Part shown: positions 26,309-44,630 of the stretch, piece after piece
Layout of the letters: each line of letters opens with the position of its first letter
Position numbering within the stretch: position 1 is the first letter of the stretch
Notes under the pieces: generated by a model
What the model was told of the DNA's origin: nothing
Seen by the model: the letters and a program-made list of their open reading frames with translations, nothing else
The model's database searches: none
Source: Ilumatobacteraceae bacterium
Lineage (GTDB): Bacteria > Actinomycetota > Acidimicrobiia > Acidimicrobiales > Ilumatobacteraceae
DNA: 64,000 bases
Assembly (NCBI GenBank): GCA_963704915.1
Contig: CAVPIC010000007.1
Span: 123,819-187,818, forward strand
Reading direction: 5' to 3'
Position numbers and translations under genes: made by a program

Positions 26309-26411
26309 GCGATGAGCGAACTGTCGGTATTCGGGCGGTTGGCTCATCGCCGGGTCGAGGAGCTGGCTTGCGATGAGCGAACTGTCGGTATTCGGGCGGT
26401 TGGCTCATCGC
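26309..26411. repeat. Array of two identical 42-bp palindromic elements (26309-26350, 26370-26411) with a 61-bp period
   Basis: Each copy reads GCGATGAGCGAACTGTCGGTATTCGGGCGGTTGGCTCATCGC. The core is inverted relative to the copies at 42583 and 44562. Confidence 0.9.
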
Positions 26412-26970
26412 TGGGGTTGGCTCGGGGCGATCGGGGCGATCGGGGCCGACGACGATGGGTCAGGCGGTACACCGTGGCCCAGGCGACCGCGATGATCGAG
26501 GCGACCGCGGTGCCCTGGTACAGCCAGTGGGTGGTGTCGGTGCCGGCGAAGGCCGCATGCAGACTGACGAGCAGGAAGACGGCGTAGCTCGAGAGATGGA
26601 TCCACCGCCAGACCCGGCGGGGGAGTCGCTTCATGGCGAGCGAGGTCACTTCGACGGCGAGGAGCAACCACAGGGCAATGACACCGAGCGCGACCGCGCC
26701 CGGTTGCCATGACGACGCGTAGGGAACGAGCAGGTCGGCGAGGCCGAAGTGGACGTAGTCGTCGGCGACGAGCGCACCGAGGTGGATCGCCGTGAACGCG
26801 ACCGCGAGTCCGCCGAGCCAGCGGTGCAGGTCGAGCAGCCAGGCAGGTCGCCGATGCTCGGGGAAGGCCTTCGTCGACAACACGATCCCCCAGATCACCG
26901 AGGCGGTCAGCATCAACCAGGCGACGATGCCGGACGCTCGTGTGAGATACCACCACACCTGTGGGTTCAT
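26344..26970 (-). CDS. Ferric-reductase-like (MsrQ-like) transmembrane haem-binding protein
   Basis: 208 aa with six predicted helices and paired His residues (HRWLGG...TAIHLGA; IHLSSY...SLHAAF). The last 22 or so codons run through the palindromic repeat. Confidence 0.75.
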   Translation of the reverse strand: MNPQVWWYLTRASGIVAWLMLTASVIWGIVLSTKAFPEHRRPAWLLDLHRWLGGLAVAFTAIHLGALVADDYVHFGLADLLVPYASSWQPGAVALGVIALWLLLAVEVTSLAMKRLPRRVWRWIHLSSYAVFLLVSLHAAFAGTDTTHWLYQGTAVASIIAVAWATVYRLTHRRRPRSPRSPRANPSDEPTARIPTVRSSQASSSTRR

Positions 26971-27944
26971 GACCGGACTCCTGTCGTCGTGACGTATGGG
27001 GGCAGATCGGCGAGTTCGGCCACGTCGTGGGTGGCGAGGACGTCACCGTCGGTCATGACCGCCACCCCGGTCAGCTCGTGCCGGTCGAGATGGTCGATCA
27101 CCCGCTCGCTGCCGGCGAGGATCGCCGCGGTTGCGTGGGCCTCGGCGAGCCACCCCGATCGGGCGATCACCGTGACCGATGCCAAGTCGGTCGTCGAGAC
27201 GTCGTCGGTCCAGGGATCGATGAGATGGTGTCGTTCGACGCCATCACGGCGCCACCGCCGCGAACGGGTGCTCGACGTGGCCACGCCGCCGCCGGTCACC
27301 TCGATGGTGCCCACGGGTTCCCGGTCGGGGTCGGGGTGTTCGATCACGACCCGCCATCCGCCCTCTGGAGAGCGTTCCGACGCTGCGATGTCGCCGCCGA
27401 TGCTGACCATGGCGCCGTTGGCGCCCGATCGCAGCGCGAGGTCGACGGCGAGATCTGCTGCCAGGCCCTTTCCGATCCCACCCGGATCGATGACCATGCC
27501 GACCGGGAGCTGAACGGTCCCCGCTTCGAGGTCGACCTCGATGTCGTCGAGCGTCAGGCGCTCGGCCGCGTCGTCATCGAACCGGAGTGCTCCGGTCGGC
27601 AGGATCGTGATGCGTCTCGGATCGTCGATGCTCGAGCGGTAACCGGCGGCCATCAACGCCGGAAGCGTGGTGGGATCGAAGCGCTGCTCGGTTGCCCGCC
27701 ACGCCTCGATCATCGTCGCCACCAGCGTGAGCGTCGAAGGATCGACCTCCAGCGGGCTTCCCTCGGCGAGGTTCAGGCGCGAGACGTCACTGTCGGGAAG
27801 GAACCGACTCCAACAGGCCTCGAGGTGTTCGAGCAGGTCGATGAGCGCTGTCGAGCCGCCAGGGGCCTCCGCCAGGTCACCACCGATCGTCACGATCTGG
27901 AGCTCGCTCGCCATCACCCGGCCGCGATGCTCAGCCACTGCCAC
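26967..27944 (-). CDS. apbE: FAD:protein FMN transferase (ApbE family)
   Basis: It contains SRFLPDSDVSRLN, VIDPGGIGKGLAAD, GGDIA and HLIDP. It has an ATGA overlap with the downstream gene. The start is ambiguous: GTG 27944, GTG 27938 or ATG 27914. Confidence 0.85.
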   Translation of the reverse strand: MAVAEHRGRVMASELQIVTIGGDLAEAPGGSTALIDLLEHLEACWSRFLPDSDVSRLNLAEGSPLEVDPSTLTLVATMIEAWRATEQRFDPTTLPALMAAGYRSSIDDPRRITILPTGALRFDDDAAERLTLDDIEVDLEAGTVQLPVGMVIDPGGIGKGLAADLAVDLALRSGANGAMVSIGGDIAASERSPEGGWRVVIEHPDPDREPVGTIEVTGGGVATSSTRSRRWRRDGVERHHLIDPWTDDVSTTDLASVTVIARSGWLAEAHATAAILAGSERVIDHLDRHELTGVAVMTDGDVLATHDVAELADLPPYVTTTGVRS

Positions 27945-28425
27945 GGGTCGTCGCCACCGGAGCAGGGGCCGGCGCCGCTGCCGGCGCCTGAGTCTGAACC
28001 TGAGTCTGCGTCGGAGCCGGCGCGACCACACGGACCTCGGGACGAGCCGTGAGGGTCACCGGAGCGAGGTCGGTTGCCACTGGCGGCGTGGTCGCCTCGG
28101 CGGTCGGCGGCAGCGTGGCCGTGGGGGAGGGGGCGGTGGGGGTGGTCGGCGAGGCGGCGGCGGTCGGCGGCGGGGTGGTCGCAGGTGGGGTACTCGCGGC
28201 CGGCGTGGACACCGCATCGTCGGCGACGGCGCTGGCGATGCCCATCGAGGCGACCAGGCCGAACATGGTGGCGACGCCGAGACCGCCGCTGGCGATCCTC
28301 GATCCGCTCGCTGCATGACGTCGCCGAGGGCGCCGTGCTGGGCTGGGGATGGAGCGGGGCGACACCGCGCTCGCTGCGGGTGGAGGCAATGGCTGGCGAC
28401 CGAGGAGGGGATCGACGTCAGTCAT
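27931..28425 (-). CDS. Membrane-anchored Pro/Thr/Ala-rich protein
   Basis: 164 aa from ATG 28425 with one TM helix (GLGVATMFGLVASMGIASAV). A low-complexity PT/PA-rich extracytoplasmic tail follows. Confidence 0.55.
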   Translation of the reverse strand: MTDVDPLLGRQPLPPPAASAVSPRSIPSPARRPRRRHAASGSRIASGGLGVATMFGLVASMGIASAVADDAVSTPAASTPPATTPPPTAAASPTTPTAPSPTATLPPTAEATTPPVATDLAPVTLTARPEVRVVAPAPTQTQVQTQAPAAAPAPAPVATTRGSG

Positions 28426-29155
28426 CGTCGTCGGCGCCTTCGTACTCGTGATCGTCGTCCTCGTCCTCGTCGTGGTCGTCGTCGTCGTCGTGATCGTCGT
28501 CCTCGTACTCGTCATCGTCATCGTCGTCGTACTCGTCGTCGTCGTGATCGTCGTCGTAGCCGCCATTGGTCGGTGAGGCGCCGACCGGGCTCTGCGTCGC
28601 TCCTGCGGCCGGTGCCTGGGCGAAGATGGTGCTCGGTTCGGTCACGTCGACGACGACAGCGCCATCTTCGCCGAGTGACGCACTGAACACGATTGTTCGG
28701 TCGCCGTTGCTGAACTCGACACGCAGTGAGCGAAGGTCGCCCTGCGAGAGCAGCGGGCTCCAGCCCGGAACTGCCTCCACGTGGTCGAGTGCGAGGCCGC
28801 TCGTGGTCGTCATGATCCACACGGAGCCCGCCTCCTCGATGTCGTACTGCTGGGCGACGTCGGTCGGAAGTGTCGTCTCGACAACGGTGGAGGCCGGCGC
28901 CGTCGTCTCGACCGTCGCGACGGTCGTCGGGATCCCGGCTGGCGCCGCCGCCGGCAGCAGCTCGTCCGTGGCCGCGAGATCACCGAGCGTGCTGTCGTCG
29001 GCGGCATTGAGGATGCCGATGTTCGCAGCAACGGCCGCGGTGCCGGCGAGCAGCACGCCGGCGACCGCTGCCGCCGTGAGGATGGTCGTGCGAGTCGTCG
29101 CGGTTCGCCCCGGCGTGCGGGGGCCTGACGGGGGTGTGGGAGGCGTCGAAGTCAT
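28418..29155 (-). CDS. Membrane-anchored extracytoplasmic protein with a 47-residue Asp/Glu/His/Tyr tail
   Basis: 245 aa from ATG 29155 with a TM helix (ILTAAAVAGVLLAGTAAVAA) and a small beta-rich domain. The C-terminus is GGYDDDHDDDEYDDDDDDEYEDDDHDDDDDHDEDEDDDHEYEGADDDD. Confidence 0.7.
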   Translation of the reverse strand: MTSTPPTPPSGPRTPGRTATTRTTILTAAAVAGVLLAGTAAVAANIGILNAADDSTLGDLAATDELLPAAAPAGIPTTVATVETTAPASTVVETTLPTDVAQQYDIEEAGSVWIMTTTSGLALDHVEAVPGWSPLLSQGDLRSLRVEFSNGDRTIVFSASLGEDGAVVVDVTEPSTIFAQAPAAGATQSPVGASPTNGGYDDDHDDDEYDDDDDDEYEDDDHDDDDDHDEDEDDDHEYEGADDDD

Positions 29156-29189
29156 GGGATCGACCGTACGCCTGGGTGTTCCAGCAGGG

Positions 29190-29216
29190 GGCAAGGCCAA
29201 GGCAAACGTTGGGTAA
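29190..29216. promoter_or_regulatory. Three direct repeats GG(C/T)AA at 11-bp phasing (candidate OmpR-family response-regulator boxes)
   Basis: GGCAA occurs at 29190 and 29201, and GGTAA at 29212. They lie in the 84-bp divergent region between the acidic-tail/ApbE operon and the response-regulator gene. Confidence 0.35.
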
Positions 29217-29239
29217 GCGATCCCCGTGCAGGTCGCCGA

Positions 29240-29948
29240 GTGCGCGAACCTGACGATGTGCGCCTGCTGCTCGTCGAGGACGATCCCACGATCTCCGATC
29301 CGCTGTTGGAAGGGCTGCGCCGCGAAGGGTTCGAGGTCGAGCTGGCATCGACGGGTGCGGCCGCGCTCGCTGCGAAGCCCGTCGACCTGGTGCTGCTCGA
29401 TCTCGGCCTGCCCGATCTGGAAGGGCGCGTCGTGTGCCAGGAGATTCGAGCCTCGAGCAACGTGCCGATCATCGTCGTCACTGCCCGCAGCGACGAGATC
29501 GATCGAGTGGTCCTGCTGGAGCTCGGCGCCGACGACTACGTCGTCAAGCCGTTCGGGTTCCGTGAGCTGGTCGCACGGATCCGGGCGGTGCTGCGCAGGA
29601 CCGGCCAGCCGGACGGCGCCATCGGCGATCTCGAGCCCGTTGAGGTCGGGGCCCTGGTCGTCGATCGCCGTCGGCACGAGGTGACGTTCGGTGGCGCGCC
29701 GGTGGCACTCACGCCGAAGGAGTACGATCTGCTCGTCTGTCTCGCAGTCGACGCCGGAGCGGTGAAGACGCGGGAGCAACTGATGCGTGAAGTCTGGGAC
29801 GAGCACTGGTGGGGTTCGACCAAGACGCTCGACGTCCACGTCGCATCGCTGCGTCGCAAGCTGGACGCCCGAGGTGATCGAGACCGTCCGATCGGTCGGC
29901 TACCGATTTGCTGCGCACGACGAGCGCGCCTCGGCCGGCGCGGAGTGA
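29240..29948 (+). pseudogene. OmpR/PhoB-family response regulator with a frameshift near the 3' end
   Basis: The receiver domain (LLLVEDDP...DLVLLDLGLPD...) and winged helix (LTPKEYDLL...TLDVHVASLRRKLDA) are followed by EVIETVRSVGYRFAA in the +1 frame. The shift is at about 29870 and the stop at 29946-29948. Confidence 0.8.
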
Positions 29949-29955
29949 CATCGCC

Positions 29956-31339
29956 GTGACCCGCCGACTCCTTGCCGGTTATCTGACGATCACGGTGATC
30001 GTGTTGGTGCTGCTGATGGTGCCACTCGGCGTGTTCTACTCCCAGCGCGAGCGCGAGCGGCTCGCTGCCGACGTCGAGCACGATGCGAACGTCATCGCAA
30101 CGCTCTACGAGGACGATCTCGAAGCCGGCACGGCGCTCGATCCGACACCGGCAGACGACCTACGAGGACCGCACCGGTGCCCGCGTCGTGGTGGTCGACA
30201 GCGCAGGGATCTCCCAGGTCGACACCGGCGCCGACGTCGATCGCGACTTCTCGACGCGGCCGGAATTCGAGGCTGCGCTGGAGGGTGTGCGGACCTCCGG
30301 CACCCGTCGATCGGAGACCCTCGGCACCGACCTGCTGTACGTTGCCGTGCCGGTGGCGTCCGGTGGCACCGTGCACGGCGCCCTGCGCATCACGCTCGAC
30401 ACGGCCGATGTGAACCAACGGATCCGCAACTTCTGGCTGGCGCTCGGGGGTATCGCAGCGGTCGTGTTGGCGGCGGTGGTCCTGATCGGATGGGTGATCG
30501 CTCGCTCGGTCACGCGGCCGCTGCGGGAGCTGACGACGACGGCGGAACGCTTCGCAGGCGGCGATCTCTCGGTCAGCGACCACGTCGCTCAAGGTCCCCC
30601 GGAGATCCGAGCGCTCGACACCACGATGACCACGATGGCGCAACGACTCGACGCGGTGTTGACCGATCAGCGCAGGTTCGTCGCCGACGCATCGCACCAA
30701 CTGCGGACGCCGTTGACCGCATTGCGGCTCCGCCTCGAGAACCTGCAGAGCGATCTCGAGGCCGGAGGCGGCGATCCCGATGGGCACGCCGTCGATGCGT
30801 TGGAACGGGCGATCGGTGAGACCGAGCGGCTCACGGAGCTCGTCTCGAATCTCCTGCAACTGGCTCGCGCCGATGCTCGACCCGTCACCGATGTCGTCGA
30901 TCTCGGCGTGCTCGTGGCGGATCGCGTCGACACGTGGACGGCCCTCGCCGATGAACGTGGTGTCGTGTTGCGCCACGCTCCTCCGGACGCGCCGACACTG
31001 GTGCGGTGTGTTGCAGGCGCGACCGAGCAGATCCTCGACAACCTGCTCGACAATGCGCTGGCCGTCTCGCCTGCAGGCGAACGCATCGACGTCGAGATCG
31101 ACCGCAGTCGCGATGGGTGCGTGCAGTTGCGGGTCGTCGACCACGGACCGGGACTCGACGACGCGGCGAAGGCCGACGCGATGCGGCGGTTCTGGCGCGG
31201 TGACGCCACGAGGCCCGGCACCGGTCTCGGTCTCGCCATCGTCGAGACGCTCGCGGCGTCGTCCGGCGGGGGTGTGGAGCTGGTCGATACCGTGGGCGGT
31301 GGGCTCACGGTGATCGTCGAGTTGCCCCTGGGGGAGTAG
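29956..31339 (+). pseudogene. Sensor histidine kinase (HAMP-HisKA-HATPase) with a frameshift in the sensor domain
   Basis: The GTG start at 29956 is followed by a TM helix. A frame change falls at about 30154 (CCG GCA g ACG ACC). Downstream lie a second TM helix, HAMP, the H-box ADASHQLRTPLTAL, and N/G boxes (DNLLDNA, GTGLGLAIV). Confidence 0.8.
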
Positions 31340-31372
31340 CAGACGAGAAGTAGCAATCCCGATCTGGATCGT

Positions 31373-31388
31373 ATACCCTTAGGGGTAT
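31373..31388. promoter_or_regulatory. Palindrome ATACCC-TTAG-GGGTAT (CsoR/RcnR-type operator-like)
   Basis: It has perfect 6-bp arms and overlaps the start codon of the small Cys-rich ORF. The TACCC...GGGTA architecture resembles known CsoR-family operators. Confidence 0.35.
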
Positions 31389-31545
31389 GTGTAGACAAAC
31401 CACCTGCAGGAAGTGCAATCGGCCGAGCTGGGCCGGCTGCGGAGCCCACGTCGAGCAGGTGCTCGGCCATGTCCCCCAGAACGATCGCTGCCAGTGCGGC
31501 TCGGGCACCTCGTCCGGCGGCCCCTCCAGCTGGTTCCGTCGCTGA
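31387..31545 (+). CDS. Small Cys-rich protein (52 aa), absent from the ORF track
   Basis: Sequence: MCRQTTCRKCNRPSWAGCGAHVEQVLGHVPQNDRCQCGSGTSSGGPSSWFRR. The six Cys are arranged as C-x5-C-x2-C-x7-C-x16-C-x-C. It resembles a conserved small protein I recall from actinobacteria and fungi (MC.KTTC..C.K.TW.GCG.H). GC3 is high. Confidence 0.55.
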   Translation: MCRQTTCRKCNRPSWAGCGAHVEQVLGHVPQNDRCQCGSGTSSGGPSSWFRR

Positions 31546-31592
31546 CGGGTTGACGAGACCTCTGACATCGCTGGGGCTGGGGTGAAGATTTT

Positions 31593-31624
31593 CTATTGCG
31601 AATCTGACTCGCAATAGTTAGTGT
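31593..31624 (+). promoter_or_regulatory. TetR operator palindrome overlapping a putative promoter
   Basis: A perfect inverted repeat CTATTGCGA-N7-TCGCAATAG spans 31593-31617. It overlaps -35 TTGCGA (31596-601), and -10 TAGTGT (31619-24) follows it with 17-nt -35/-10 spacing. The -10 ends 9 nt before the TetR ATG, implying a leaderless or near-leaderless mRNA. This is a locally AT-rich patch. Confidence 0.5.
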
Positions 31625-31633
31625 CGTCGTGTC

Positions 31634-32259
31634 ATGGGGGACACGACGACGGACAACGCACCGACGATCGACGGGCGACGGGCCCGGCGCGAGCGCGGCA
31701 GGACCGCCGTGATCGACGCGGTGTTCGAACTCGCCGAGGAGGGGAAGATCCCGCCCACGGCGGAACTCGTCGCCGAACGCTCCGGCGTGTCGGTGGCGTC
31801 GATCTTCCGGTACTTCGACGGCCTCGACGACCTGCAGGTGCATGCCCATCGCCGATTCCGCGAGCGATTCGCGCCGCTGGTGGCCGCAGTCGGCAACGGA
31901 CCTCGTGCCGAACGCATCGCTGCCTTCGTCGAGTCACGGCTCGACCTCTACGAGCAGGCGGGGGCGATCATGGCGCTCGGCTCGACTGCGCGCGCTCGAA
32001 CACGAACCGCTTGCTCGAGGCGTCGACCGAGACCAAGGCAGCACTGGCCGACCAGGTCCGCACGACCTTCGAGCCCGAATCGCAGGGCAGGCCACCCGGT
32101 CTGGTCGCCGAACTCGTCGCAGTGATCGACGCGTTCACCTCTGTCGAGGCGTGGGACGTGATGCGCAGGACGCACGCTCGGTCGCGGCACCAGATCGCCA
32201 CCAGCTGGCGCCGCGGCATTGCCGCACTGATCGACGACTGGGAACAGGACGGCAACTGA
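31634..32259 (+). pseudogene. TetR-family transcriptional regulator with one frameshift
   Basis: The HTH region (AVIDAVFELAEEGKIPPTAELVAERSGVSVASIFRYF) is in one frame. The C-terminal domain (SNTNRLLEASTETKAALADQV...SWRRGIAALIDDWEQ) is in another. A 1-nt deficit lies near 31995. Confidence 0.75.
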
Positions 32260-32260
32260 C

Positions 32261-34541
32261 ATGACACGACCATCGCGATTCGAGGGCACGATCGGGCGTA
32301 CGGTCGCCGAGTCGACGCCGTACTTCGACGAACCACCGCACCCGGCGACGACGCCCCGAACGTGGTGGTCGTGCTGCTCGACGACACCGGATTCGCCCAG
32401 TTCGGCTGCTACGGCTCCGACATCGACACGCCCAACGTCGACGCGCTCGCCGCCGGTGGCCTGCAGTTCACCAACTTCCACGTGACGCCGCTGTGCTCGC
32501 CGACCCGGGCATCGCTGCTCGACCGGCCGATCGCAGCACGCCGTCGGGATGCGGGCCGTGTCGAACTTCCGCACGGGGTTTCCGAACATGCTCGGCCACA
32601 TCTCGAACCACGCCGCAACGATGGCCGAGGTGCTTCGCAATGCCGGCTACGCCACGTTCGCGGTCGGCAAGTGGCACCTCGCGCCGATGGAGCAGTGTTC
32701 GGCCGCCGGCCCGTTCGACCAGTGGCCGCTGGCGCGTGGGTTCGACCGGTTCTACGGCTTCATGGAGGGCGAGACCGACCAGTTCCACCCCGAACTGGTC
32801 GCCGACAACCACCCCATCACGCCGCCGGCGGGCCCCGACGATGGCTATCACCTGTCGGAGGATCTGGTCGACCAGGCACTGCGGATGATCTCCGACAGTG
32901 TCGGCGTGCGCCCCGATCGGCCGTTCTTCACCTACCTCGCGTTCGGAGCGACGCATGCACCGCATCAGGCGCCACCGGAGTACCTCGCAAAGTACCGCGG
33001 GAAGTTCGACGAGGGCTGGGACGTCGTGCGCCAGCGCTGGTTCGAGCGCCAGCTCGAGCTCGGCATCATTCCGCAGGGGACCGAACTCGCACCACGCAAT
33101 CCGGGTGTCGACGCCTGGGACGACCTCCCGGAGAACCAGCAGCGACTGGCGTGTCGACTCCAGGAGGCCTTCGCCGCGTTCCTCGACCACACCGACGATC
33201 AGATCGGTCGCCTCGTCGACGGACTGCGACGGCTCGGACAGCTCGACAACACCGTGCTCGTCGTGCTGGCGGACAACGGCGCATCGCAGGAGGGCGGTCC
33301 GTTCGGGGTCATGCACGAGATGAAGTTCTTCAACGGGATCTTCGAGACGCCCGACCAGGCCGTCGAGCGCATCGACGACATCGGCGGCCCGCACAGCCAC
33401 ACCAACTACCCGTGGGGCTGGGCGCAGTGCGGCAACACCCCGTTCAAGTGGTACAAGCAGAACACCCACGAAGGCGGGGTCCACGTGCCGATGGTGGTGC
33501 ACTGGCCCGAACGGATCGCCGGCGATGCGGCCGGAACCCGGCGCGATCAGTTCACCTTCGTCGCCGACATCGCTCCGACGATCTACGAACTCGTGGGCGT
33601 CACCCCGCCCGGGGTGTACCGAGGGATCGAGCAACTCCCGGTGACCGGGCACTCGTTCGCCGCGGCCCTCGATGACGCCGGGTCGCCGGCGAGCGAACCA
33701 ACTCCAGTACTTCGAGATGGGCGGCAGCCGAGCGCTGGTGGCAGGGGAGTGGAAGGCGGTCTGCAAGCACATCGCAGGCGCCGACTACGACACCGAACCG
33801 TGGGAGCTGTACCACCTCGCAAGCGACTTCTCCGAGTGCCGAGACCTCGCGGCCGTGCAGCCCGAGCGACTCGCCGAGTTGCAGGGGCTCTGGTGGCAGG
33901 AAGCCGAGCGCCACGGCGTGCTGCCGCTCGACGACCGGATGTTCGAGCTGTTCGGCACCCGGTTCCGCGATCACTCGCCGCATCCCGCCGATCGCCGGTA
34001 CGTGTATCGACCGCCGATGTCGCCGCTGCCGGGCCAGGCGGCCGCGGCCATCGGTGGCCGCAGCTTCGACCTCACTGCGCGCCTCACACGGCAAGCCGGC
34101 GACGACGGCGTGCTCTACGCCACCGGCACCGAGAACAGCGGTGTGGCGGTGTTCGTGCAGGGCGACCGCCTCGTGGTCGACTACAACGCCTTCGACGACC
34201 ACACGATCCTCGAGTCGGACGTGACGCTGCCAGCGGGCGACGTGACCGTGACCGTCAGCGTGCGCCGAGGTCCGTCGCGGACCGGCACCATGCACCTCGC
34301 CGTCGACGGTGCACCGGCCGGGTCGGCCGACCTCGCGTTGTTCATGTCGATGATGTCGTCGGTCGGTCCGAGCATCGGCGAGGACCACGGCTCCGCGGTG
34401 TCGCAGCGCTACCACGCGCCGTTCCCGTTCACCGGAATCCTGCACGAGATCGAGATCCAATTGCTGTCCCGCGAGGACGCCGAAGCCCGCGACGCCGAAC
34501 TGGCCGAGGTTGCGGCCCGAGCAGTGATGAGCCGCCAGTGA
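32261..34541 (+). pseudogene. Formylglycine-type arylsulfatase (about 760 aa) with three frameshifts
   Basis: The pieces are:
- MTRPSRFEGTIGRTVAESTPYFDEPPHP
- GDDAPNVVVVLLDDTGFAQFGCYGS...[10 protein letters not shown]
- [13 protein letters not shown]...KWHL...[11 protein letters not shown]...
- [14 protein letters not shown]...[24 protein letters not shown]
The shifts are at about 32344 (-1), 32521 (+1) and 33695 (+1). Confidence 0.8.
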
Positions 34542-35395
34542 CCATCGACATCACGCTCCTCGGCACCGGGAGCCCGATGGCCGATCCGAACCGGGCAGGA
34601 CCGGCGACGCTCGTCCAGGCCGGCGGCGAGCACTACCTGGTCGACTGCGGCCGCGGCGTGCTCATGCGGCTGGCCGCGGCGGGCGTCCCGGTCGGACAGG
34701 TGACCGCCGTCTGCATCACACACCTGCACAGCGACCACATCACCGACCTCAACGACGTGATCACCGCCATGTGGATCACCACGTTCGAGCCGACGCCACT
34801 GCGGATCATCGGCCCGCCCGGCACGAAGGAGGTCGTCGGCCACATCCTCGCCTCGCTCGGCCCCGACATCGGCTACCGCCTCGCCCACCATGCCGACCTC
34901 GAGCAGCCGCCGTTGTTGGAGATCACCGAGACCGACGGCGTCGGGCAGCCCGACGTGTCGGTCGGCGCCGTCCGCGTGACGACCGCTCCCACCGATCACC
35001 GGCCGGTCGAGCCGAGCATCGCGTTCCGATTCGACCACGCCGGCACCGCTGCGGTGGTGGCCGGCGACACCGTGCCGTGTGACGGGCTCGACGAGGTGTG
35101 TCGTGGCGCGCAGGCGCTCGTCCACACGGCGATCCGCAAGGACATCATCACCAACGTGCCGATCCCGCGACTGCAGGACACGCTCGATTACCACTCGTCG
35201 CCCGAGGAGGCGGCCCAGACCGCCGAGCGGGCAGGGATGGGCACGCTCGTCCTCACGCACTACGTGCCGGCGATCCCGCCCGGTGGTGGCGACGACTGGC
35301 GACAACTCGCTGCCCAACACTTCACCGGTCGCGTCGAACTCGGCGACGACCTCCACCGCATCACCATCACCTCGGAGACCCAGGACGATTCATGA
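34538..35395 (+). CDS. MBL-fold metallo-hydrolase (RNase Z/ElaC-like)
   Basis: 285 aa with LLGTGSP, the motif [12 protein letters not shown] (HxHxDH) and THY. It has a GTGA overlap with the sulfatase stop. Confidence 0.8.
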
Positions 35396-36309
35396 AGACG
35401 CTGCGCACACCCGACGAACGATTCGAGGGGCTCGACGGGTATCCGTTCGAGCCGCACTACGCCGAGATCGCCGCGAGTGCCGGCGAACGTGACGGTGGCA
35501 CGCTGCGCGTGCACTACCTCGACGAAGGGCCCGCCGACGCTGCACCGGTGCTGCTGCTGCACGGCGAACCGTCGTGGAGCTACCTGTACCGCCACATGAT
35601 CCCGCCGCTGGTTGCCGCCGGTCACCGGGTGATCGTCCCCGATCTGGTCGGATTCGGGCGCAGCGACAAGCCGACCGAGCAGGGTGACTACACCTACGCC
35701 CGCCACGTCGAGTGGATGCGCGAGCTGCTGTTCGATCACCTCGACCTGCGCGACATCACGTTCTTCGGCCAGGACTGGGGCGGGCTCGTCGGGCTTCGGT
35801 TGCTCGCCCTCGATCCCGATCGGTACGCACGGGTGGCGATCGGCAACACCGGCCTGCCGACCGGCCACGGGCCCGCCAGCGATGCGTTCATGGCCTGGCA
35901 GAAGTTCTCGCAGGAGACGCCCGTGTTCGACATCGGATTCCTGATCAACTCGGCCACCACCACCGACCTGACGCCGGAGGTGATCGCCGGCTACGACGCG
36001 CCGTTCCCCGATGACAGCTACAAGGCCGGGGCGCGCATCTTCCCGACGCTGGTGCCGACGAGCCCCGACGATCCGGCAAGTGCTGACAACATGGCTGCCT
36101 GGGAGGTCCTGTCGAAGTTCGACAAGCCGTTCCTGTTGTGCTTCAGCGACAGCGATCCGGTCACGAAGGGCGGCGACGCCCCGTTCCTCGCAAAGGTGCC
36201 CGGGGCCCAGGGGCAACCTCACGTCACGATCGAAGGGGGCGGTCACTTCTTCCAGGAGGACCGTGGTCCCGAGCTCGCCGACCTGTTGGTCGGCTTCATC
36301 GGGTCCTGA
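35392..36309 (+). CDS. Haloalkane dehalogenase (alpha/beta hydrolase, HLD-I like)
   Basis: 305 aa with [23 protein letters not shown], the nucleophile motif GQDWGG and GGGHFFQED. It has an ATGA overlap with the upstream gene. Confidence 0.85.
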
Positions 36310-37202
36310 TGGCAGTCGTCGCAGGGCCCGATCTCGAGTGGCGCGAGCTGAGCCGGCGTGCCGCGCTCCAGTCCCATCGCCTGATCGGCTGGATCTACTG
36401 GGATCCACGAGCGATCGCCAACTATGCGGCACTCGGCGTCCCCGACGGGATCGGCTATTACATCGCCACTCGTGGCGCAACGCTGGGAGACGCCGGCAAC
36501 GACGTGGTGACGGCGGCGTTCTACTCCATTCATCCCGGCTTCGTCGCGTTCGGACTCGATCAGTGCCGCACGCACACGACGTTCGAGTCCGCCGCCGCGG
36601 CCCGTGATGCGGCCGTGACCGATGGCTTGCGCGAGTACGTGCCGGAGATCTGTGACGAGCTCGCGTCGATGGCGCCGCAACTCTGGGCCGCAGCCGACGC
36701 GCTCCCGCTGGCGGGACGAGCGTTGTTCGCGTCGACCCGTGCGTGGCCGCGTCCGGACGACGCGCTGGTGTCTGCGTGGCTCGCGGTCAACTGCATCCGC
36801 GAGTGGCGTGGCGACACGCACTGGGCGATCCAGATCGCCGAGGACATCACCGGCACTGCGGCCGGCATCCTCGACGGCGCCTGGCGGAACTACGACGGTG
36901 ACTGGCTGGCCCGCAGCCGCGGCGCCGACGACGCCGCGCTCGCGATCGGGTTCGCCGAGCTGGAGGCTCGTGGGCTCGCGTCCGACGGGGCGGTCAACGC
37001 GGCCGGCATCGAGTACCGGCAGGGGTTGGAGGATCGCCTCGACGATCTCTGCGCCGCGGCGTGGCGCCACCTCGGCGAGGACGCAACGGTCCGGTTCGTC
37101 GAACTCGTCGAACCGGTCGGCGGGCGGCTCGTCGAACGCATCGACGTCACCGCCGGCCCCAACTGGATGCCCGCAGCACGCGACCGGAAGGCCCCCTCGT
37201 GA
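36309..37202 (+). CDS. Conserved actinobacterial hypothetical protein (SCO6745-family-like)
   Basis: 297 aa containing LIGWIYWDPRAIANYAALGVPDGIGYYIATRGATLGDAG...VVTAAFYSIHPGFV. It has a TGATG junction with the dehalogenase gene. The family assignment is from memory only. Confidence 0.6.
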   Translation: MAVVAGPDLEWRELSRRAALQSHRLIGWIYWDPRAIANYAALGVPDGIGYYIATRGATLGDAGNDVVTAAFYSIHPGFVAFGLDQCRTHTTFESAAAARDAAVTDGLREYVPEICDELASMAPQLWAAADALPLAGRALFASTRAWPRPDDALVSAWLAVNCIREWRGDTHWAIQIAEDITGTAAGILDGAWRNYDGDWLARSRGADDAALAIGFAELEARGLASDGAVNAAGIEYRQGLEDRLDDLCAAAWRHLGEDATVRFVELVEPVGGRLVERIDVTAGPNWMPAARDRKAPS

Positions 37203-37684
37203 TCACCACCGAACGAACCCGGACGATCCCGGCCCGACAGTCACGGGTGTGGGATGTCCTCGCCGACTTCGACCGTCTCGCCGTCTGGGCCGACAACGCC
37301 GACCACACCTGCTGGCTCGACGAGCCCGCCGACGACGGCCGCATGATCGGCCGGGCACGCCGGGTGCAGGCCGGCAGGGTGGTGCTCGTCGAGCGGATCA
37401 CTGTCTGGGAGCCGCCGGCCCGCCTCGCCTACGACCTCGGCGGACTGCCGCCGGTGGTCAAGTCCGCAGTGAACGAGTGGCGTCTCGTCGCCGACCCGTC
37501 GGACGGCAACCGGACGATCGTCACGCTGGCCACCCACGTCGACTGCGGTCCTCGACCGCCACAGCAACTCATCGCCCGCCTCGTCGGCAAGCGCCTGGCC
37601 AAAGCGTCCGACGTGATGCTGGTAGGCCTGGCCGACCATCTCGCTGTGACGCACCTCTCCGATTTGAAGGGAACACCGACATGA
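37199..37684 (+). CDS. SRPBCC (START/polyketide-cyclase-like) family protein
   Basis: 161 aa with the typical start (ERTRTIPARQSRVWDVLADFDRLAVW). It has GTGA and ATGA overlaps with its neighbours. Confidence 0.75.
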   Translation: MITTERTRTIPARQSRVWDVLADFDRLAVWADNADHTCWLDEPADDGRMIGRARRVQAGRVVLVERITVWEPPARLAYDLGGLPPVVKSAVNEWRLVADPSDGNRTIVTLATHVDCGPRPPQQLIARLVGKRLAKASDVMLVGLADHLAVTHLSDLKGTPT

Positions 37685-40272
37685 GCCAGACACGACCCGA
37701 CGTGATCGTGATCATGACCGACCAGGAGCGGGCAGCTCCGCCGTACGAATCCGACGAGCTGCGGGCATGGCGCCACGACACCCTCACCGGGCGCACGTGG
37801 TTCGCGGAACATGCGGTGTCGTTCGGTCGCCACTACACCGGCTCGCTGGCGTGCGTGCCGAGTCGACCGACGCTGTTCACCGGGCAGTACCCAGACCTGC
37901 ACGGGGTGACGCAGACTGATGGCCTCGGCAAGCTGCACGACGACTCACGGCTGCGCTGGCTTCCCGAAGGCGAGGTGCCGACGCTCGGCAACTGGTTCCG
38001 AGCTGCCGGCTACGACACGCACTATGACGGCAAGTGGCACATCAGCCATGCCGACCTGGTCGATGCGGCGACCGGTGAGATCGTTGCCACCAATGACGAC
38101 GACGGCAACGTCGATGCTGCCGCGGTGCAGCGCTATCTCGCCGCCGACCCACTCGGGCCGTACGGGTTCTCCGGCTGGGTCGGCCCGGAGCCCCACGGTG
38201 CTGGACTTGCCAACGCCGGGGTGCGCCGTGACCCGCTGATCGCGGCTCGTGTGGTCGCCTGGTTGGAAGACCGCTACGCCCGCCGAGCAGCGGGCGACGC
38301 CGACGCACAGCGACCATTCCTGCTGGTGGCGAGCTTCGTCAATCCCCACGACATCGTGCTGTTCCCCGCGTGGATCCGCCAGGGCATGCCGATCGAGCCG
38401 GGCTCGCTCGACCCGCCCACGGTTGCGCCCTCGCCGACCGACGACGAGGACCTGTCGACCAAGCCCGCCGCACAGATCGCCTACCGCGAGTCGTATCCCA
38501 CCGGGTACGGACCGGTGGCGCTGGTCGGCAAGTCCTATCGCGACCACGCCCAGGAGTACCGCGACCTCTACTACCGGCTGCACGCAGATGTCGACGGTCC
38601 GCTCGACCAGGTGCGCCGGGCGATCACCGCCGGCCACGAGAGCGGTGCCTTCGACGAAGCGGTGATCGTCCGCACGGTCGACCACGGAGAGCTGCTCGGC
38701 GCCCACGGCGGGCTCCACCAGAAGTGGTTCAACCTCTACGACGAGGCAACCCGTGTGCCCTTCGAGGTGGTTCGACTCGGTTCGAGCCCGACCGAGCCGC
38801 GGGTGATCGACGACGCACCGACGTCCCACGTCGACCTCGTTCCGACGCTGCTCGGCGCGGCTGGCATCGACGAAGCCGAGGTGGCCCAGAGGTTGCGCGC
38901 CGAGTTCAGTGAGGTCCATCCGTTGCCCGGTCGCAATCTGATGCCGGTCGTCGATGGGGTGCTGACACCGGACCGAAATCGTGCGGTGTATGTCCTGACC
39001 AGGGACAACATGCTCGAAGGAGACACAGGGGCCTCGGGGTTCGCCCGCCGGATCGGACGGACGGTGAAGCCGCCCGCGCCGTTGCGGATCAAGGTGCCGG
39101 CCCACGTGGGAGCGAACTTCGAAGGGGTCGTCGTCAGGGTCGAGGACACCGACGCACCCGGCGGTGCCGGGCACTTGTGGAAGCTGGTGCGCACGTTCGA
39201 CGACCCGGCGACCTGGACCGAACCCGGGGTTCGCCACCTTGCCGCGAACGGGTTGCGCGGCGACGAGTACCGCACCGAACCGCTCGCTGACCAGTGGGAG
39301 CTCTACGACCTGACCGCCGATCCGGTCGAGCACGTCAATTGCTGGCGCGATAATGACACACGCTCCGTGTTCGAGCACATGCAGACCGTCTTGAAGCACG
39401 AGCGGGCGCATTCGGTGCCCGAACGCAACGTGCCGTGGCCCTATGTGCGCCGGCGGGCGAGCGCTCCGGCGACCAAGCGGGTGCCGCCACCGGCGCGGCT
39501 GTTGCGCAAGGGGCTGCAGAAGCTCGGGTTGCATCCTGACGACCCTGACGCGCGTGAGTTCGAACTCCTCGGCAAGCGGGCGCTGATCGTGTGCACCAAC
39601 CACGCGGTGCTCGACGTCGGCAAGGCGACAGGTGTGTTCGCCAGCGAGATGACGGTGCCGTACTACGCGTTCCTCGACGCCGGCATGTTCGTCGATCTCG
39701 CCAGCCCGAACGGGGGAGTGATCCCCGTCGACCCGCAGAGCGTCAAACCCGTGATCCGCAGCGCCGATGACGATCGGTTCCTCGCCGACCCCGAACTCCG
39801 AGGGAAGGTCGCGGACTCGCTGGCGGTCGCCGATGTCGACATCGCGTCGTACGACATCGTCTTCCTCGCCGGCGGCTGGGGTGCGGCGTTCGACCTCGGC
39901 ACGTCGGACGCACTCGGCGAGACGATGACCGAGGCGAACGCGCTCGGCAAGGTGATCGGCGGGGTCTGCCACGGGCCGCTCGGGCTGTTGCGAGCGACCG
40001 CACCCGACGGTCGCCCGCTGGTCGAGGGACGCCGGGTCTCAGCGGTGACCGACAAGCAGGTGCGCGAGCTCGGCATCGAGGCGACACCGCAGCACCCCGA
40101 GACCGAGCTGCGTGCCGCTGGGGCCGTGTTCGAGAGCGTGCACGCTCGCCGAGACCCGCTCGCCAACCACTGGGTCGTCGACGGCAACCTCGTCACCGGC
40201 CAGAACCAGAATGCCGGGCCGATGGTGGCGCGGGAGATGATGCAGATCCTCACCCAACGAGATGGACAGTGA
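37681..40272 (+). CDS. Formylglycine-type sulfatase fused to a C-terminal DJ-1/PfpI (class I glutamine-amidotransferase-like) domain
   Basis: 863 aa. The N-terminus has VIVIMTDQER, the signature CVPSRPTLFTGQ and KWHISH. The C-terminal 230 or so aa (ALIVCTNHAVL...IVFLAGGWGAAFDL...VIGGVCHGPLGLL...VTGQNQNAG) match DJ-1/PfpI/Hsp31-like proteins, including a nucleophile-elbow Cys-His. No stop codon separates the two parts. Confidence 0.85.
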   Translation: MSQTRPDVIVIMTDQERAAPPYESDELRAWRHDTLTGRTWFAEHAVSFGRHYTGSLACVPSRPTLFTGQYPDLHGVTQTDGLGKLHDDSRLRWLPEGEVPTLGNWFRAAGYDTHYDGKWHISHADLVDAATGEIVATNDDDGNVDAAAVQRYLAADPLGPYGFSGWVGPEPHGAGLANAGVRRDPLIAARVVAWLEDRYARRAAGDADAQRPFLLVASFVNPHDIVLFPAWIRQGMPIEPGSLDPPTVAPSPTDDEDLSTKPAAQIAYRESYPTGYGPVALVGKSYRDHAQEYRDLYYRLHADVDGPLDQVRRAITAGHESGAFDEAVIVRTVDHGELLGAHGGLHQKWFNLYDEATRVPFEVVRLGSSPTEPRVIDDAPTSHVDLVPTLLGAAGIDEAEVAQRLRAEFSEVHPLPGRNLMPVVDGVLTPDRNRAVYVLTRDNMLEGDTGASGFARRIGRTVKPPAPLRIKVPAHVGANFEGVVVRVEDTDAPGGAGHLWKLVRTFDDPATWTEPGVRHLAANGLRGDEYRTEPLADQWELYDLTADPVEHVNCWRDNDTRSVFEHMQTVLKHERAHSVPERNVPWPYVRRRASAPATKRVPPPARLLRKGLQKLGLHPDDPDAREFELLGKRALIVCTNHAVLDVGKATGVFASEMTVPYYAFLDAGMFVDLASPNGGVIPVDPQSVKPVIRSADDDRFLADPELRGKVADSLAVADVDIASYDIVFLAGGWGAAFDLGTSDALGETMTEANALGKVIGGVCHGPLGLLRATAPDGRPLVEGRRVSAVTDKQVRELGIEATPQHPETELRAAGAVFESVHARRDPLANHWVVDGNLVTGQNQNAGPMVAREMMQILTQRDGQ

Positions 40273-41119
40273 CATGACCGACACGCGCACACCCCGCTAC
40301 GGAACCGTCGATCGTGAGTACGGGATGAGACTGGCGACCATGCCACCCGACGAGGACGGTCCGGTGTGGATGGTCAACCTCATGAAGTACCGCGAGGTTG
40401 CGGACTACGCCGACGGTCGCGAGTCGGCGATCAGCGGACGCGACGCCGACGATCTCTACACGCCGCGGGAGTCGCTCGCGGCGATCGGCGCCGAGATCGT
40501 GTTCGCCGGCGAGGTCGACCAGCAGTTGCTCGGCGACGCGCCGATCTGGGACCGCGTCGGGGTGGTGAAGTATCCGACGCGTCGCTCGTTCATCGAGATG
40601 CAGTCGCGTCCCGACTTCCAGCGCCAGCACGTCCACAAGGACGCCGGGATGGCCGAGACGATCGTCATCGGGTGCCAGCCGATCGACGTTCCGACGGCAC
40701 CCGACGGCACCGAGCCCGTCGACTGGGCCGACGTGCCGCACCCGCCGACCGACGGCGACGGCCCGGTGATGGTGATCCACGTCCTCAAGTACCACGAGGC
40801 CGCTACGGCATCGATCACGCCTGAGGACATGGCGGCATACCAGCGCGCCGCTGCCGAGGTCGCCGTTCCCCATGGTGTGCGGATCTCCGGGTGGTTCGCC
40901 GCCGAGGGCACGATCCTCGGTGACGGACGCACATGGGACCAGGTCCGGTTCAACCTGTTCCCGAGCAAGGCGGCGTTCATGGCGGTCGTGGTGGACCCGG
41001 CGCGCCTGGAAGCCCAGAAGTCCAGCCGTGAACCGGCGATCGCCGACACATACACGATGATCGTGCGGCCCTCGATCGACCACATCGCCGACAGCATTGC
41101 GGGCATCGACCTGCGATGA
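40262..41119 (+). CDS. Tandem DUF1330-domain protein
   Basis: It has two DUF1330-like halves (VWMVNLMKYREVADY...; VMVIHVLKYHEAATASI...). The start is ATG 40262 (11-nt overlap) or ATG 40274 (1 nt after the upstream stop). The stop codon 41117-41119 lies inside a palindromic repeat. Confidence 0.75.
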   Translation: MDSDMTDTRTPRYGTVDREYGMRLATMPPDEDGPVWMVNLMKYREVADYADGRESAISGRDADDLYTPRESLAAIGAEIVFAGEVDQQLLGDAPIWDRVGVVKYPTRRSFIEMQSRPDFQRQHVHKDAGMAETIVIGCQPIDVPTAPDGTEPVDWADVPHPPTDGDGPVMVIHVLKYHEAATASITPEDMAAYQRAAAEVAVPHGVRISGWFAAEGTILGDGRTWDQVRFNLFPSKAAFMAVVVDPARLEAQKSSREPAIADTYTMIVRPSIDHIADSIAGIDLR

Positions 41120-41215
41120 GCCAAGTGTCGCCATTCAGGCGGTTCGCTCATCGCTGGGGTGGGAACGTTGTCTGCGATGAGCGAAGTGTCGGTATCCGGG
41201 CGGTTGGCTCATCGC
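41113..41215. repeat. Array of two 42-bp palindromic elements (41113-41154, 41174-41215) with a 61-bp period
   Basis: The copies read GCGATGAGCCAAGTGTCGCCATTCAGGCGGTTCGCTCATCGC and GCGATGAGCGAAGTGTCGGTATCCGGGCGGTTGGCTCATCGC. Confidence 0.9.
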
Positions 41216-41234
41216 TGGGGAGGGAGCGCCCTCG

Positions 41235-41771
41235 GTGAGTGGGCCTCGGTACTTTGCATTCATGCGGGCGATCAACACCGGTACGCGGAGGTTGACGAAC
41301 GAGCGGCTGCTGGAGCCCTTCGTCGAACTGGGCTTCACCGACGTCGCCGCCTACCAGGCGGCCGGCAACGTCACGTTTCGCAGCGATCATGCGGTCGACG
41401 AGCACCGCATCGAACGCGAGCTGGCAGCGGCGTACGGCTTCGACACGCCGGCGTTCGTCCGATCGGCGGCCGACGTGAGAGCGATCGCCGACGTCGAACC
41501 GTTCTCGCCGACGGAGATCGCTGCGACGGCCAGAAAGGTGCAGGTGACGTTCCTGCGGAGCCCACCGTCACGCGATCAGATCGCTGCCCTCGTCGATCTC
41601 GCCCCCGACGACGACCTCGTGCGGGTGATCGGATGCGAGTGGTACTGGCTGCCGGTCGAGGGCATCAGCGGGTCCAAGCTCGATGTCGGGCAGGTCGAGT
41701 CGCTGCTGGGCGAAATGACCATGCGTACCCTCGGAACCGTGGCACGTATGTCGAGCAAGTTCGCCGGCTGA
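41235..41771 (+). CDS. DUF1697-family protein
   Basis: 178 aa with a GTG start. It contains YFAFMRAINTGTRRLTNERLLEPFVELGFTDVAAYQAAGNVTF, characteristic of DUF1697. Confidence 0.8.
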   Translation: MSGPRYFAFMRAINTGTRRLTNERLLEPFVELGFTDVAAYQAAGNVTFRSDHAVDEHRIERELAAAYGFDTPAFVRSAADVRAIADVEPFSPTEIAATARKVQVTFLRSPPSRDQIAALVDLAPDDDLVRVIGCEWYWLPVEGISGSKLDVGQVESLLGEMTMRTLGTVARMSSKFAG

Positions 41772-41803
41772 GCTCCCCGGCTGAGCTCCCCGGCTGAGCT
41801 CCA
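41766..41803 (+). repeat. 13-bp tandem repeat (GGCTGAGCTCCCC) with 2.9 copies
   Basis: Sequence: GGCTGAGCTCCCC GGCTGAGCTCCCC GGCTGAGCTCCA. The first unit contains the DUF1697 stop codon. Confidence 0.8.
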
Positions 41804-41812
41804 CCAGCACCA

Positions 41813-41864
41813 CGTTTGTGATGCAATCCGGGTGGGGCGGTCCACCGAAACCGTCACGCAAACG
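41813..41864 (-). repeat. 52-bp element with inverted termini (copy C, reverse orientation)
   Basis: The reverse complement reads CGTTTGCGTGACGGTTTCGGTGGACCGCCCCACCCGGATTGCATCACAAACG. It is exactly 52 bp, like copies A and B. Confidence 0.7.
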
Positions 41865-41918
41865 TGGGTCGAGGAAACCGATTGTCGGTCACTGCTGGGA
41901 ACGAGGCAAGATCCGCCG

Positions 41919-42563
41919 ATGCCACCTGTTCATTCGCTCGCCGCCTTCGCAGCGGTGTCGTTCGCGATCATCATCATTCCGGGACCGAGCGTGATGTTCG
42001 TGGTCGGCAGGGCGTTGTCGCTCGGCCGGCGCGCCGCACTCGTCACGGTGGCCGGTAACGCGCTCGGTTTCTACGTCCAGGTGATGCTCGTGGCGGTCGG
42101 CCTCGGAGCGATCGTCGAGCGATCGGCAGCCGTGTTCACCACCATCAAGCTGATCGGTGCGCTCTACCTCGTCTGGGTCGGGGCGCAGGCGATCATTCAC
42201 CGTCGGGCCAACGCTCAGCGTGCGGTCCTCGTCGAGGGCGCTGACGTGGTGGGCCATCGGTCGCTGTTCCTGGACGGCTTCGTGGTGGGCGTGGCGAATC
42301 CCAAGACGATCGTGTTCTTCGCCGCGATCCTGCCCCAGTTCGTGGCCGCCGGCGGCGCTCCGGCTGGGGTGCAGATGCTGGCGCTCGGGGTGATCTTCGC
42401 AGTGATTGCGTTGGCATCCGACAGCGCGTGGGGCCTCGCCGCAGGGACCGCACGACAGTGGTTCGCAGGCTCGCCCAGGCGACTCGAACTCGTCGGCGCC
42501 GCAGGAGGCGCGGCGATCGTGGGTCTCGGGGTTCGATTGGCGCTCACACGCCGCTCCGACTGA
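41919..42563 (+). CDS. LysE/RhtB-family amino-acid exporter
   Basis: 214 aa with AAVSFAIIIIPGPSVMFVVGRAL and FVVGVANPKTIVFFAAILPQF. Confidence 0.85.
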   Translation: MPPVHSLAAFAAVSFAIIIIPGPSVMFVVGRALSLGRRAALVTVAGNALGFYVQVMLVAVGLGAIVERSAAVFTTIKLIGALYLVWVGAQAIIHRRANAQRAVLVEGADVVGHRSLFLDGFVVGVANPKTIVFFAAILPQFVAAGGAPAGVQMLALGVIFAVIALASDSAWGLAAGTARQWFAGSPRRLELVGAAGGAAIVGLGVRLALTRRSD

Positions 42564-42582
42564 TGGCGCCTGCCGGCGGCCT

Positions 42583-42745
42583 GCCATGAGCCAACCGCCC
42601 GAATCCCGGCTTTTCGCTCATCGCTGGGCGCGTACACCGTGTCCGATGAGCGAAGCGCCCGGATGGCGTCACTTGGCTCATCGCAGGCGGTTGGACTCGG
42701 TCAGCGATGAGCGAACCGCCCGAATCCCGGCTTTTCGCTCATCGC
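42583..42745. repeat. Array of three 42-bp palindromic elements (42583-42624, 42643-42684, 42704-42745)
   Basis: The periods are 60 and 61 bp. The core subtypes alternate a-b-a. Confidence 0.9.
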
Positions 42746-42767
42746 TGGGGATGGGCGGCGGTGTTGG

Positions 42768-44474: not shown

Positions 44475-44500
44475 CGCCCGAGCATGTCAGACCGACCGCT

Positions 44501-44603: not shown

Positions 44604-44630
44604 TGGGGATGTGTCGGCGGCTGCGGGGTG

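Follow-up and report, generated by a model that had tools for sequence, protein, structure and literature searches.

Small loop inversions are known from chloroplast hairpins, and the flip and flop isomers of parvoviruses and adeno-associated virus (AAV) occupy the termini of a linear replicon, arise in every replication round and coexist at about 1:1 in one population. Dispersed palindromes of the repetitive extragenic palindrome (REP) and bacterial interspersed mosaic element (BIME) type have been described in Enterobacteria and Pseudomonads (REP/RAYT, REPIN; PMC2817692, PMC3116915, PMC3733652). The REP palindrome carries a GTAG or CGTC tetranucleotide tag at one end (PMC3733652), and REPs in BIME clusters alternate in orientation (PMC2817692). 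In-place inversion of hairpin loops through inter-strand template switching has been documented as well, Actinobacteria included (PMC8794818). The window analysed here, a whole stretch of 64,000 nt from an Ilumatobacteraceae bacterium (contig CAVPIC010000007.1 of assembly GCA_963704915.1, positions 123,819 to 187,818), carries twelve copies of a 42-bp palindromic element in six clusters, all between called genes. We regard it as moderately probable that these copies are REP/BIME-like intergenic palindromic repeats of Ilumatobacteraceae, in which the core was set either way round by rare events and frozen by array expansion.

In each element, arms of 9 bp, GCGATGAGC on the left and GCTCATCGC on the right, enclose a core of 24 bp. 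The arms are exact inverted repeats, and the element as a whole forms an imperfect palindrome around an invariant AT at core positions 12–13. The common core half is (G/C)AACCGCCCG and the opposite half is more variable, so that the hairpin has fixed bulges or internal loops. A search of the window for GCGATGAGC-N24-GCTCATCGC with up to 3 mismatches returned 12 matches (Table 1), compared to 0.18 expected from 100 shuffles, none of which reached 12. On one side of the element lies a G-rich linker of about 19 nt, (T)GGGG...GGTT, and element and linker together form a tandem unit of 61 bp; neighbouring copies in the window are spaced at 61 bp, or at 60 bp in one case. A scan of genomes for the exact arms, with one genome per species, yielded at least 115 loci, and a scan of metagenomes yielded 120 further loci; the combined sample comprised approximately 400 copies in 277 clusters at 245 related loci, and 63 of 79 neighbouring copies were spaced at 61 bp. 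Among the matches listed, nearly all genome-scan loci were from Ilumatobacteraceae metagenome-assembled genomes (MAGs), and the family appears to be confined almost entirely to Ilumatobacteraceae (Acidimicrobiia). Rfam gave no match to the repeat at the gathering threshold, a permissive search returning only a chance microRNA match (E = 0.23). No description of a dispersed repeat family in Acidimicrobiia, or of the repeat itself, was found in a literature search, and the family is apparently new to the literature.

The preliminary description of this DNA stated that the cores at 26309, 26370, 41113 and 41174 are reverse complements of those in the other eight copies, while the flanks keep one polarity. 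An identity matrix bears this out, the four cores matching the other eight at 15–20 of 24 positions as reverse complements and at 10–15 directly, and copies within one orientation class matching directly at 15–24. The three pairs singled out there (26309 and 42583, 41174 and 44562, 41113 and 42643) again gave 20/24 as reverse complements, versus direct identities of 14/24, 14/24 and 11/24, respectively. These similarities are to be read against a raised baseline, since the core is partly self-complementary (10–16 of 24 positions identical to its own reverse complement in the window). Furthermore, the window copies are not independent, tandem copies being duplicates and the doublets starting at 42643 and 44501 being identical at 103 of 128 positions, spacer and tail included.

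The flank pattern was likewise reproduced. A T stands at position −1 of the left arm in 10 of 12 copies and TGGG(G) at +1 in 6 of 12, three in each core class (26412, 41155 and 41216; 42625, 42746 and 44604), and a G-rich linker or tail is on the + strand in all six clusters. In a larger sample, TGGG or TCGGG on the right (23.7% of copies) and GTT on the left (11.9%) contrast with approximately 1% at random positions, and flank motifs are enriched 10- to 20-fold. The 19-nt spacers have a mean G−C of +5.3, with +6 or more in 52%, compared to 7.5% of random 19-mers, and a loose consensus of T1, G2–4, G16–17 and T18–19. Polar flank pairs (GTT with TGGG in 11 copies, AAC with CCCA in 13; 24 copies) outnumber the symmetric pair TGGG with CCCA (3). 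The agreement of all six clusters between 9854 and 44628 on the + strand has a chance of about 1 in 32, two-sided, and among other loci with two polar arrays 2 were concordant and 1 was discordant. This bias may reflect either replication strand or local duplication history.

The uncoupling of core orientation from the polar flank extends beyond the window. Orientation was assigned by similarity; assignment by strand-specific folding energy was rejected and dropped, the calls being inconsistent for directly similar cores. When each orthologous locus was counted once, 50 independent arrays had a spacer that was clearly G-rich, and in these the two combinations of core orientation and linker polarity occurred 27 and 23 times (binomial p = 0.67). 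A first, smaller sample had given a 3–4:1 association when scored per copy; it shrank to 29 to 17 per array and vanished in the larger sample, the apparent association having arisen because copies are not independent. Exact reverse complements (24/24) with the same linker polarity were found in different genomes (e.g. L019:7777 versus L104:299 and L106:6610).

The preliminary description proposed, as one explanation, that the core flips between the arms in the manner of the ends of hairpin-primed replicons. In such a system, a site-specific invertase or a hairpin intermediate of replication or transposition would continually invert the core, and both isomers would coexist at each locus. The ratio of about 1:1, the exact reverse-complement cores, and arms that are perfect inverted repeats in a strongly folding element all agree with this proposal. 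However, close relatives keep the orientation they have. At the level of consensus assemblies, the elements of near-identical strains (flanks at least 99.6% identical) agree at all four testable loci: a sister species has identical elements at two loci in six assemblies, and the near-identical pairs L017/L153 and L132/L226 also agree, one point substitution excepted. In a relative whose alkyl-sulfatase is 88% identical (L122), four of four orthologous elements retain both orientation and A/B order. Adjacent copies within arrays were in the same orientation in 62 cases and flipped in none, 11 being ambiguous, and no ortholog group with flank identity of at least 90% holds both states. At 80–87% flank identity, 14 orthologs were the same, 4 were flipped and 48 had cores diverged past recognition. 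Moreover, no recombinase is encoded among the approximately 60 window genes, the elements are internal and chromosomal, away from replicon ends, and a 24-bp segment is, to our knowledge, too short for ordinary recombinase synapsis. Continual inversion is thus highly improbable, and the claim of a running flip/flop was not upheld. Judged from the assemblies, core orientation is a fixed, heritable and rarely changing state of each locus rather than a running switch, and it appears to be set before the array expands.

The ortholog of the element at 9854 is a decayed copy in L015 and has the same orientation in L126 (21/24). The array at 11109 is represented in L015 by one copy of unchanged orientation, and that at 26309 is unchanged in orientation in L127 (91.5% flank identity), where its two copies differ from each other. 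Both arrays flanking the alkyl-sulfatase gene are present in L122: the array at 42583 has two copies there, unchanged in orientation and order, and that at 44501 has retained both copies in unchanged orientation (21/24 and 22/24). In some genomes, an orthologous copy is decaying or missing.

The second explanation offered previously was the insertion of an element with palindromic ends, in either orientation, into a conserved T^TGGGG-like target. In the form considered here, the element would be mobile and its orientation random, the target would be oriented, such as (G)GTT^TGGGG, and the flanks would be target sequence and the core cargo. This would predict a 1:1 orientation ratio, and it accords with the enrichment of flank motifs and with the variation in presence, absence and copy number between related species at the same junctions. 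Most candidates from an empty-site search by flank BLAST were spurious, the usable comparisons being L030 versus L058 and L046, and the 41113 junction in L116 and L124. In L116 (6485–6519) and L124 (8820–8870), a 276–278-aa gene and a DUF1697 gene overlap by 4 nt in operon style and no element is present; the junction reads ...TCGG TGGGG TGAG..., so that the TGGGG expected at an empty site is found there. The empty site of L030, compared with the filled sites of L058 and L046, has no TGGGG motif, and the two usable comparisons therefore disagree on this target. The extra DNA of the window at 41113 amounts to about two 61-nt units with linkers rather than 2 × 42 nt, and the C-terminus of the upstream gene has been remodelled. 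Furthermore, the G-rich sequence recurs with the element at the fixed 61-bp period, is homologous between arrays and between spacer and tail, and thus travels with the element, so that TGGGG marks the start of the linker of the unit rather than an independent target. The tail of the 41113 array, for example, is like its internal spacer at 13 of 19 positions (read by eye), indicating that the tail belongs to the repeated 61-nt unit. Single copies carry the motif on either side independently, and flank k-mers gave no sign of target-site duplication above re-paired controls (k = 3, 3 versus 2.8 expected; k = 4–6, 0). In addition, no transposase was found among the window genes or among three array-bracketed genes elsewhere. 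Of the insertion proposal, the 1:1 ratio and one TGGGG junction stand, and the linker repeated with the element and the lack of target-site duplication do not fit; we consider insertion into such a target unlikely. The interpretation in the preliminary description was thus partly supported.

Two of the loci used in these comparisons, L046:1711 and L058:6835, are orthologous two-copy arrays between the same convergent genes, with left flanks 95% identical, unrelated cores and opposite spacer polarity, and the same junction in L030 holds no element. These differences indicate that the turnover of whole arrays is fast. At the junction of the window's 41113 array, another species (L125, 8550–8680) carries a different palindrome with arms GCGATGAGT and ACTCATCGC. 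Its 25-nt core is unrelated, partial repeats of GGCGCGGAAACTCA(T/C)CGCTTGCG come after it, and it may represent a sister repeat family.

Within the element, arms and core evolve at different rates. At 93–95% flank identity, arms were 100% identical, compared to 38–96% for cores and 50–68% for spacers. In relatives retrieved through a neighbouring protein, and thus unselected for the repeat, arms had 0–2 mismatches and cores were diverged, and cores at orthologous sites look genome-specific. The potential to fold is nevertheless kept. As single-stranded DNA, the window elements form hairpins with z-scores of −3.7 to −5.5, and core self-complementarity averages −27.2 kcal/mol versus −21.2 kcal/mol for shuffled sequences, 96% of copies beating their own shuffles. 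In the 26309 array, where the conserved half CGGGCGGTT adjoins the G-rich tail, the + strand hairpin (−14.1 kcal/mol, z = −5.3) is far more stable than the − strand hairpin (−9.9 kcal/mol, z = −3.7) because of G·T pairs. Three further candidate features were rejected. Covariation between stem halves did not exceed the shared palindromic consensus, since swapping halves costs nothing. An extension of the hairpin into the flanks was not supported by true flank pairs (4.77 of 14, versus 4.65 when re-paired), the flanks being complementary in composition only (C-rich left, G-rich right). A GTT motif that seemed to flank single copies at a distance of 8 nt on either side was an artefact, a single conserved gene end (..ACGTTCGAGCG) having been sampled many times over in orthologs.

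A further possibility is that no inversion has ever occurred. The cores could instead be drawn from a pool of interchangeable half-sites built on a palindromic consensus, with half-site shuffling or hairpin-templated correction producing the apparent reverse-complement relatives. Chimeric cores, in which left and right halves come from separate copies, match real ones in folding (−27.4 versus −27.2 kcal/mol), and the window cores can be read as combinations of about six half-types, that at 41174 being the reverse complement of a B right half joined to that of an A left half (read by eye). Perfect palindromes also exist (e.g. L076, 24/24 identical to its own reverse complement), and between the orthologs L065 and L081 a change of several bases increases the complementarity of the stem. 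However, whole cores that are exact reverse complements (24/24), with all asymmetries mirrored, occur in different genomes, and particular asymmetric combinations of halves, such as CAACCGCCCGAATCCCGGCTTTTC, recur unchanged in many genomes, indicating that the asymmetry is inherited as a unit. An origin without any inversion is thus distinctly unlikely.

The arrays lie between convergent genes in 41 cases, tandem genes in 56 and divergent genes in 23, compared to a background of 137, 500 and 149, respectively, so that arrays between convergent genes are twice as frequent as expected (41/120 versus 137/786). The median distance from the upstream stop codon to the array is 13–21 nt. A link to the direction of transcription, considered for arrays between tandem genes, was rejected, no correspondence being seen for linker polarity (10 versus 14) or for core orientation (21 versus 17). 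The position of the arrays suggests, by analogy with what has been proposed for REPs, a possible role in transcript 3′-end formation, insulation or nucleoid protein binding. A promoter scan gave no canonical signal. The arms contain TGA on both strands, and the gene at 40262–41119 takes its stop codon from the left arm (41113–41121) of the 41113 element. Similarly, a called − strand gene with a Ferric_reduct domain (26344–26970) would continue across the 26370 copy as far as a stop codon in an arm (26342–26350) of the 26309 copy. Through such arm-borne stop codons, the repeats reshape the C-termini of neighbouring genes.

Considering these results, we propose the following scenario for the REP/BIME-like repeats. 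Perfectly palindromic arms offer no cue to orientation, so that the core is not tied to the linker. A rare event would set the core in either orientation before the array grows. This event may be an in-place inversion, by inter-strand template switching or by arm-to-arm recombination, or an overwriting (re-seeding) from another copy, for which the arms allow pairing in both senses. When the 61-bp unit is then duplicated in tandem, the state of the core would be frozen. Arm-to-arm inversion as a rare evolutionary event is a good candidate for the source of the two states. Recognition of the invariant arms by a lineage-specific protein is probable, as is extrusion of the element into a hairpin or cruciform. 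If orientation is set rarely and then frozen by expansion, the 'flip' would be a neutral evolutionary polymorphism of a functionally symmetric element and not a switch. A more active mechanism is conceivable, in which the arms are recognition or cleavage sites of a lineage-specific hairpin-processing enzyme (RAYT-like, or an unrelated nuclease or resolvase) and the core is repeatedly excised or overwritten through a single-stranded hairpin. As the arms are identical on both strands, pasting by such an enzyme would give a flip or flop core at random, and if true this would cover the 1:1 ratio, the fixed 61-bp unit and the very fast turnover that makes cores genome-specific while the arms on either side stay perfectly conserved. 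We consider it quite improbable.

Several observations weigh against the preferred reading of REP/BIME-like repeats with cores set by rare events. Simple duplication of a symmetric founder does not account for the constant 61-bp period. The four 'flipped' orthologs are only 13–18/24 identical and may thus be replacements rather than inversions. Static assemblies do not separate inversion, conversion and re-insertion, and low-frequency isomers within a population would be compatible with consensus assemblies. No Y1 transposase, recombinase or integrase was found among the window genes, which are ordinary metabolic and transport genes, or among the three array-bracketed genes, and no trans-acting protein for the arms has been found so far. 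Arrays between divergent genes make up 19%, equal to the background, and these cases look genuine, so that a pure terminator role does not fit; moreover, a terminator scan of 40800–44800 gave no canonical terminator. Finally, two hallmarks of REPs and BIMEs differ. Neither GTAG nor CGTC occurs in the arms GCGATGAGC/GCTCATCGC, the flank profiles being limited to A/T at −1, T at +1 and runs rich in G or C, and array copies are direct at a 61-bp period and not alternating.

Table 1. Positions of the palindromic elements and of their G-rich tails in the window.
Feature	Positions	Strand	Sequence and context
Single element, 'B-type'	9854–9895		Core GAAGCGCCCGAAGAGCGCCACTTG; orientation class of 42643 and 44501; convergent context, cNMP-binding protein gene ending at 9813, DUF1269 gene (−) ending at 9926
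Two-element array	11109–11211		Elements 11109–11150 and 11170–11211; both cores GAAGCGACCGGATAGCGGCTTTTC; spacer 19 nt, G-rich, ggggccggtgcggctggtt; convergent genes around
Two-element array, 'flipped' class	26309–26411		Elements 26309–26350 and 26370–26411, identical; core GAACTGTCGGTATTCGGGCGGTTG
G-rich tail of 26309 array	26412–26446	+	tGGGGttggctcGGGGcgatcGGGGcgatcGGGG; four G4 runs; Tandem Repeats Finder (TRF) 26422–26446, period 9, 2.8 copies
Two-element array, both 'flipped'	41113–41215		Elements 41113–41154, core CAAGTGTCGCCATTCAGGCGGTTC, and 41174–41215, core GAAGTGTCGGTATCCGGGCGGTTG; spacer tggggtgggaacgttgtct; both neighbouring genes on + strand
G-rich tail of 41113 array	41216–41234	+	tggggagggagcgccctcg
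Three-element array, 'forward' orientation	42583–42745		Elements 42583–42624 (A), 42643–42684 (B) and 42704–42745 (A); CCGCCCG in left core half; between LysE gene 41955–42563 (+) and alkyl-sulfatase gene 42768–44474 (−)
G-rich tail	42746–42770	+	tggggatgggcggcggtgttggtca; homologous to tail at 44604
Two-element array, 'forward' orientation	44501–44603		Elements 44501–44542 (B) and 44562–44603 (A); between two − strand genes, SDR gene ending at 44631 and alkyl-sulfatase gene starting at 44474
G-rich tail	44604–44628	+	tggggatgtgtcggcggctgcgggg

The tail of the 26309 array has the form GGGG-N7-GGGG-N5-GGGG-N5-GGGG, a canonical G-quadruplex-type motif, and the 9-nt tandem repeat within it is TCGGGGCGA. 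The two 128-nt doublets mentioned above are composites of B element, spacer, A element and tail that stand as direct repeats (42643–42770 and 44501–44628) on either side of the alkyl-sulfatase gene, and this bracketing could favour loss or movement of the gene. The position of the neighbouring LysE gene varies among relatives. Elsewhere in the window, a match to the Rfam family Ms_AS-5, a Mycobacterium antisense small RNA (sRNA) family, lies at 37852–37896 (−; 57.7 bits, gathering score 46), antisense inside the sulfatase gene at 37702–40272, and probably represents conserved coding sequence rather than an sRNA here. A PIN-domain gene (1071–1475, −) overlaps by 4 nt the end of an upstream 73-aa open reading frame (1472–1693) without a Pfam match, and the pair looks like a VapBC-type toxin–antitoxin system. 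Two RPE65-family (carotenoid cleavage oxygenase-like) genes (2257–3609 and 4251–5645, +) have a small MDMPI_N-domain gene (−) between them. A simple repeat, TCGTCG / TCGTCCTCGTCATCG (28412–28557, 24 copies of the 6-mer), lies in a 462-aa gene without a Pfam match (28418–29806, −) and would encode a low-complexity acidic tract.

In soil and water, Acidimicrobiia are abundant but have been little studied. In Ilumatobacteraceae MAGs, arrays with a 61-bp period can interrupt assemblies, provide neighbouring genes with stop codons and serve as markers of intergenic boundaries. The symmetric build of the element also amounts to a natural experiment on the constraint acting on repeats, arms being invariant, hairpin potential being kept and core orientation being free. 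Should the turnover of cores prove to be enzyme-driven, the repeats would parallel hairpin-transfer flip/flop on the chromosome, away from any terminus, and would reveal a new way in which bacterial repeats evolve in concert and are homogenised.

Among known systems, miniature inverted-repeat transposable elements (MITEs) and transposons with terminal inverted repeats (TIRs) differ in their target-site duplications, and intrinsic terminators in the U-tract after the hairpin, which is followed here by a G-run and not a T-run. Invertons share the inverted repeats, but here the segment is only 24 bp, states are not mixed and no recombinase is encoded in the window. The 20-bp dRS3 repeats of Neisseria have RS units of 50–150 bp between them and are a target for IS110-type insertion and phage integration. 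Like these repeats and the mosaic elements (NIMEs) they form part of, the present family has conserved inverted arms and variable centres and alternates with spacer-like units in intergenic arrays, although no association with IS110-type or phage integration was seen. With parvoviruses and AAV it shares two isomers in which an inner palindrome is reverse-complemented within an outer stem, but its elements are fixed at each locus and internal to a 251-kb chromosomal contig, between housekeeping genes. The likeness to REPs and BIMEs is broader and includes short imperfect palindromes (20–40 bp class) in high copy number, strictly intergenic near gene ends, as well as regularly spaced clusters, conserved linkers, persistence at orthologous sites and genome-specific variants (PMC2817692, PMC3116915). 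In contrast to REPs, the outer arms are a perfect palindrome, so that orientation is visible in the core only, the core sits either way relative to the linker and the host is an acidimicrobial actinobacterium; no RAYT (Y1 HUH transposase, PF01797) is present among the window genes or the three array-bracketed genes. With both the tag and the alternating orientation failing, the family is, on sequence grounds, best described as REP-like but outside the REP/RAYT family. Loop inversion by template switching mostly concerns loops of 4–8 nt in single genes, whereas the segment here is a 24-bp quasi-palindrome in a dispersed family, its inversion being read from static comparison. Nevertheless, as in that process, a segment between short perfect inverted repeats is reverse-complemented while stems and flanks stay unmoved, in events that are rare, heritable and neutral for a symmetric structure (PMC8794818).

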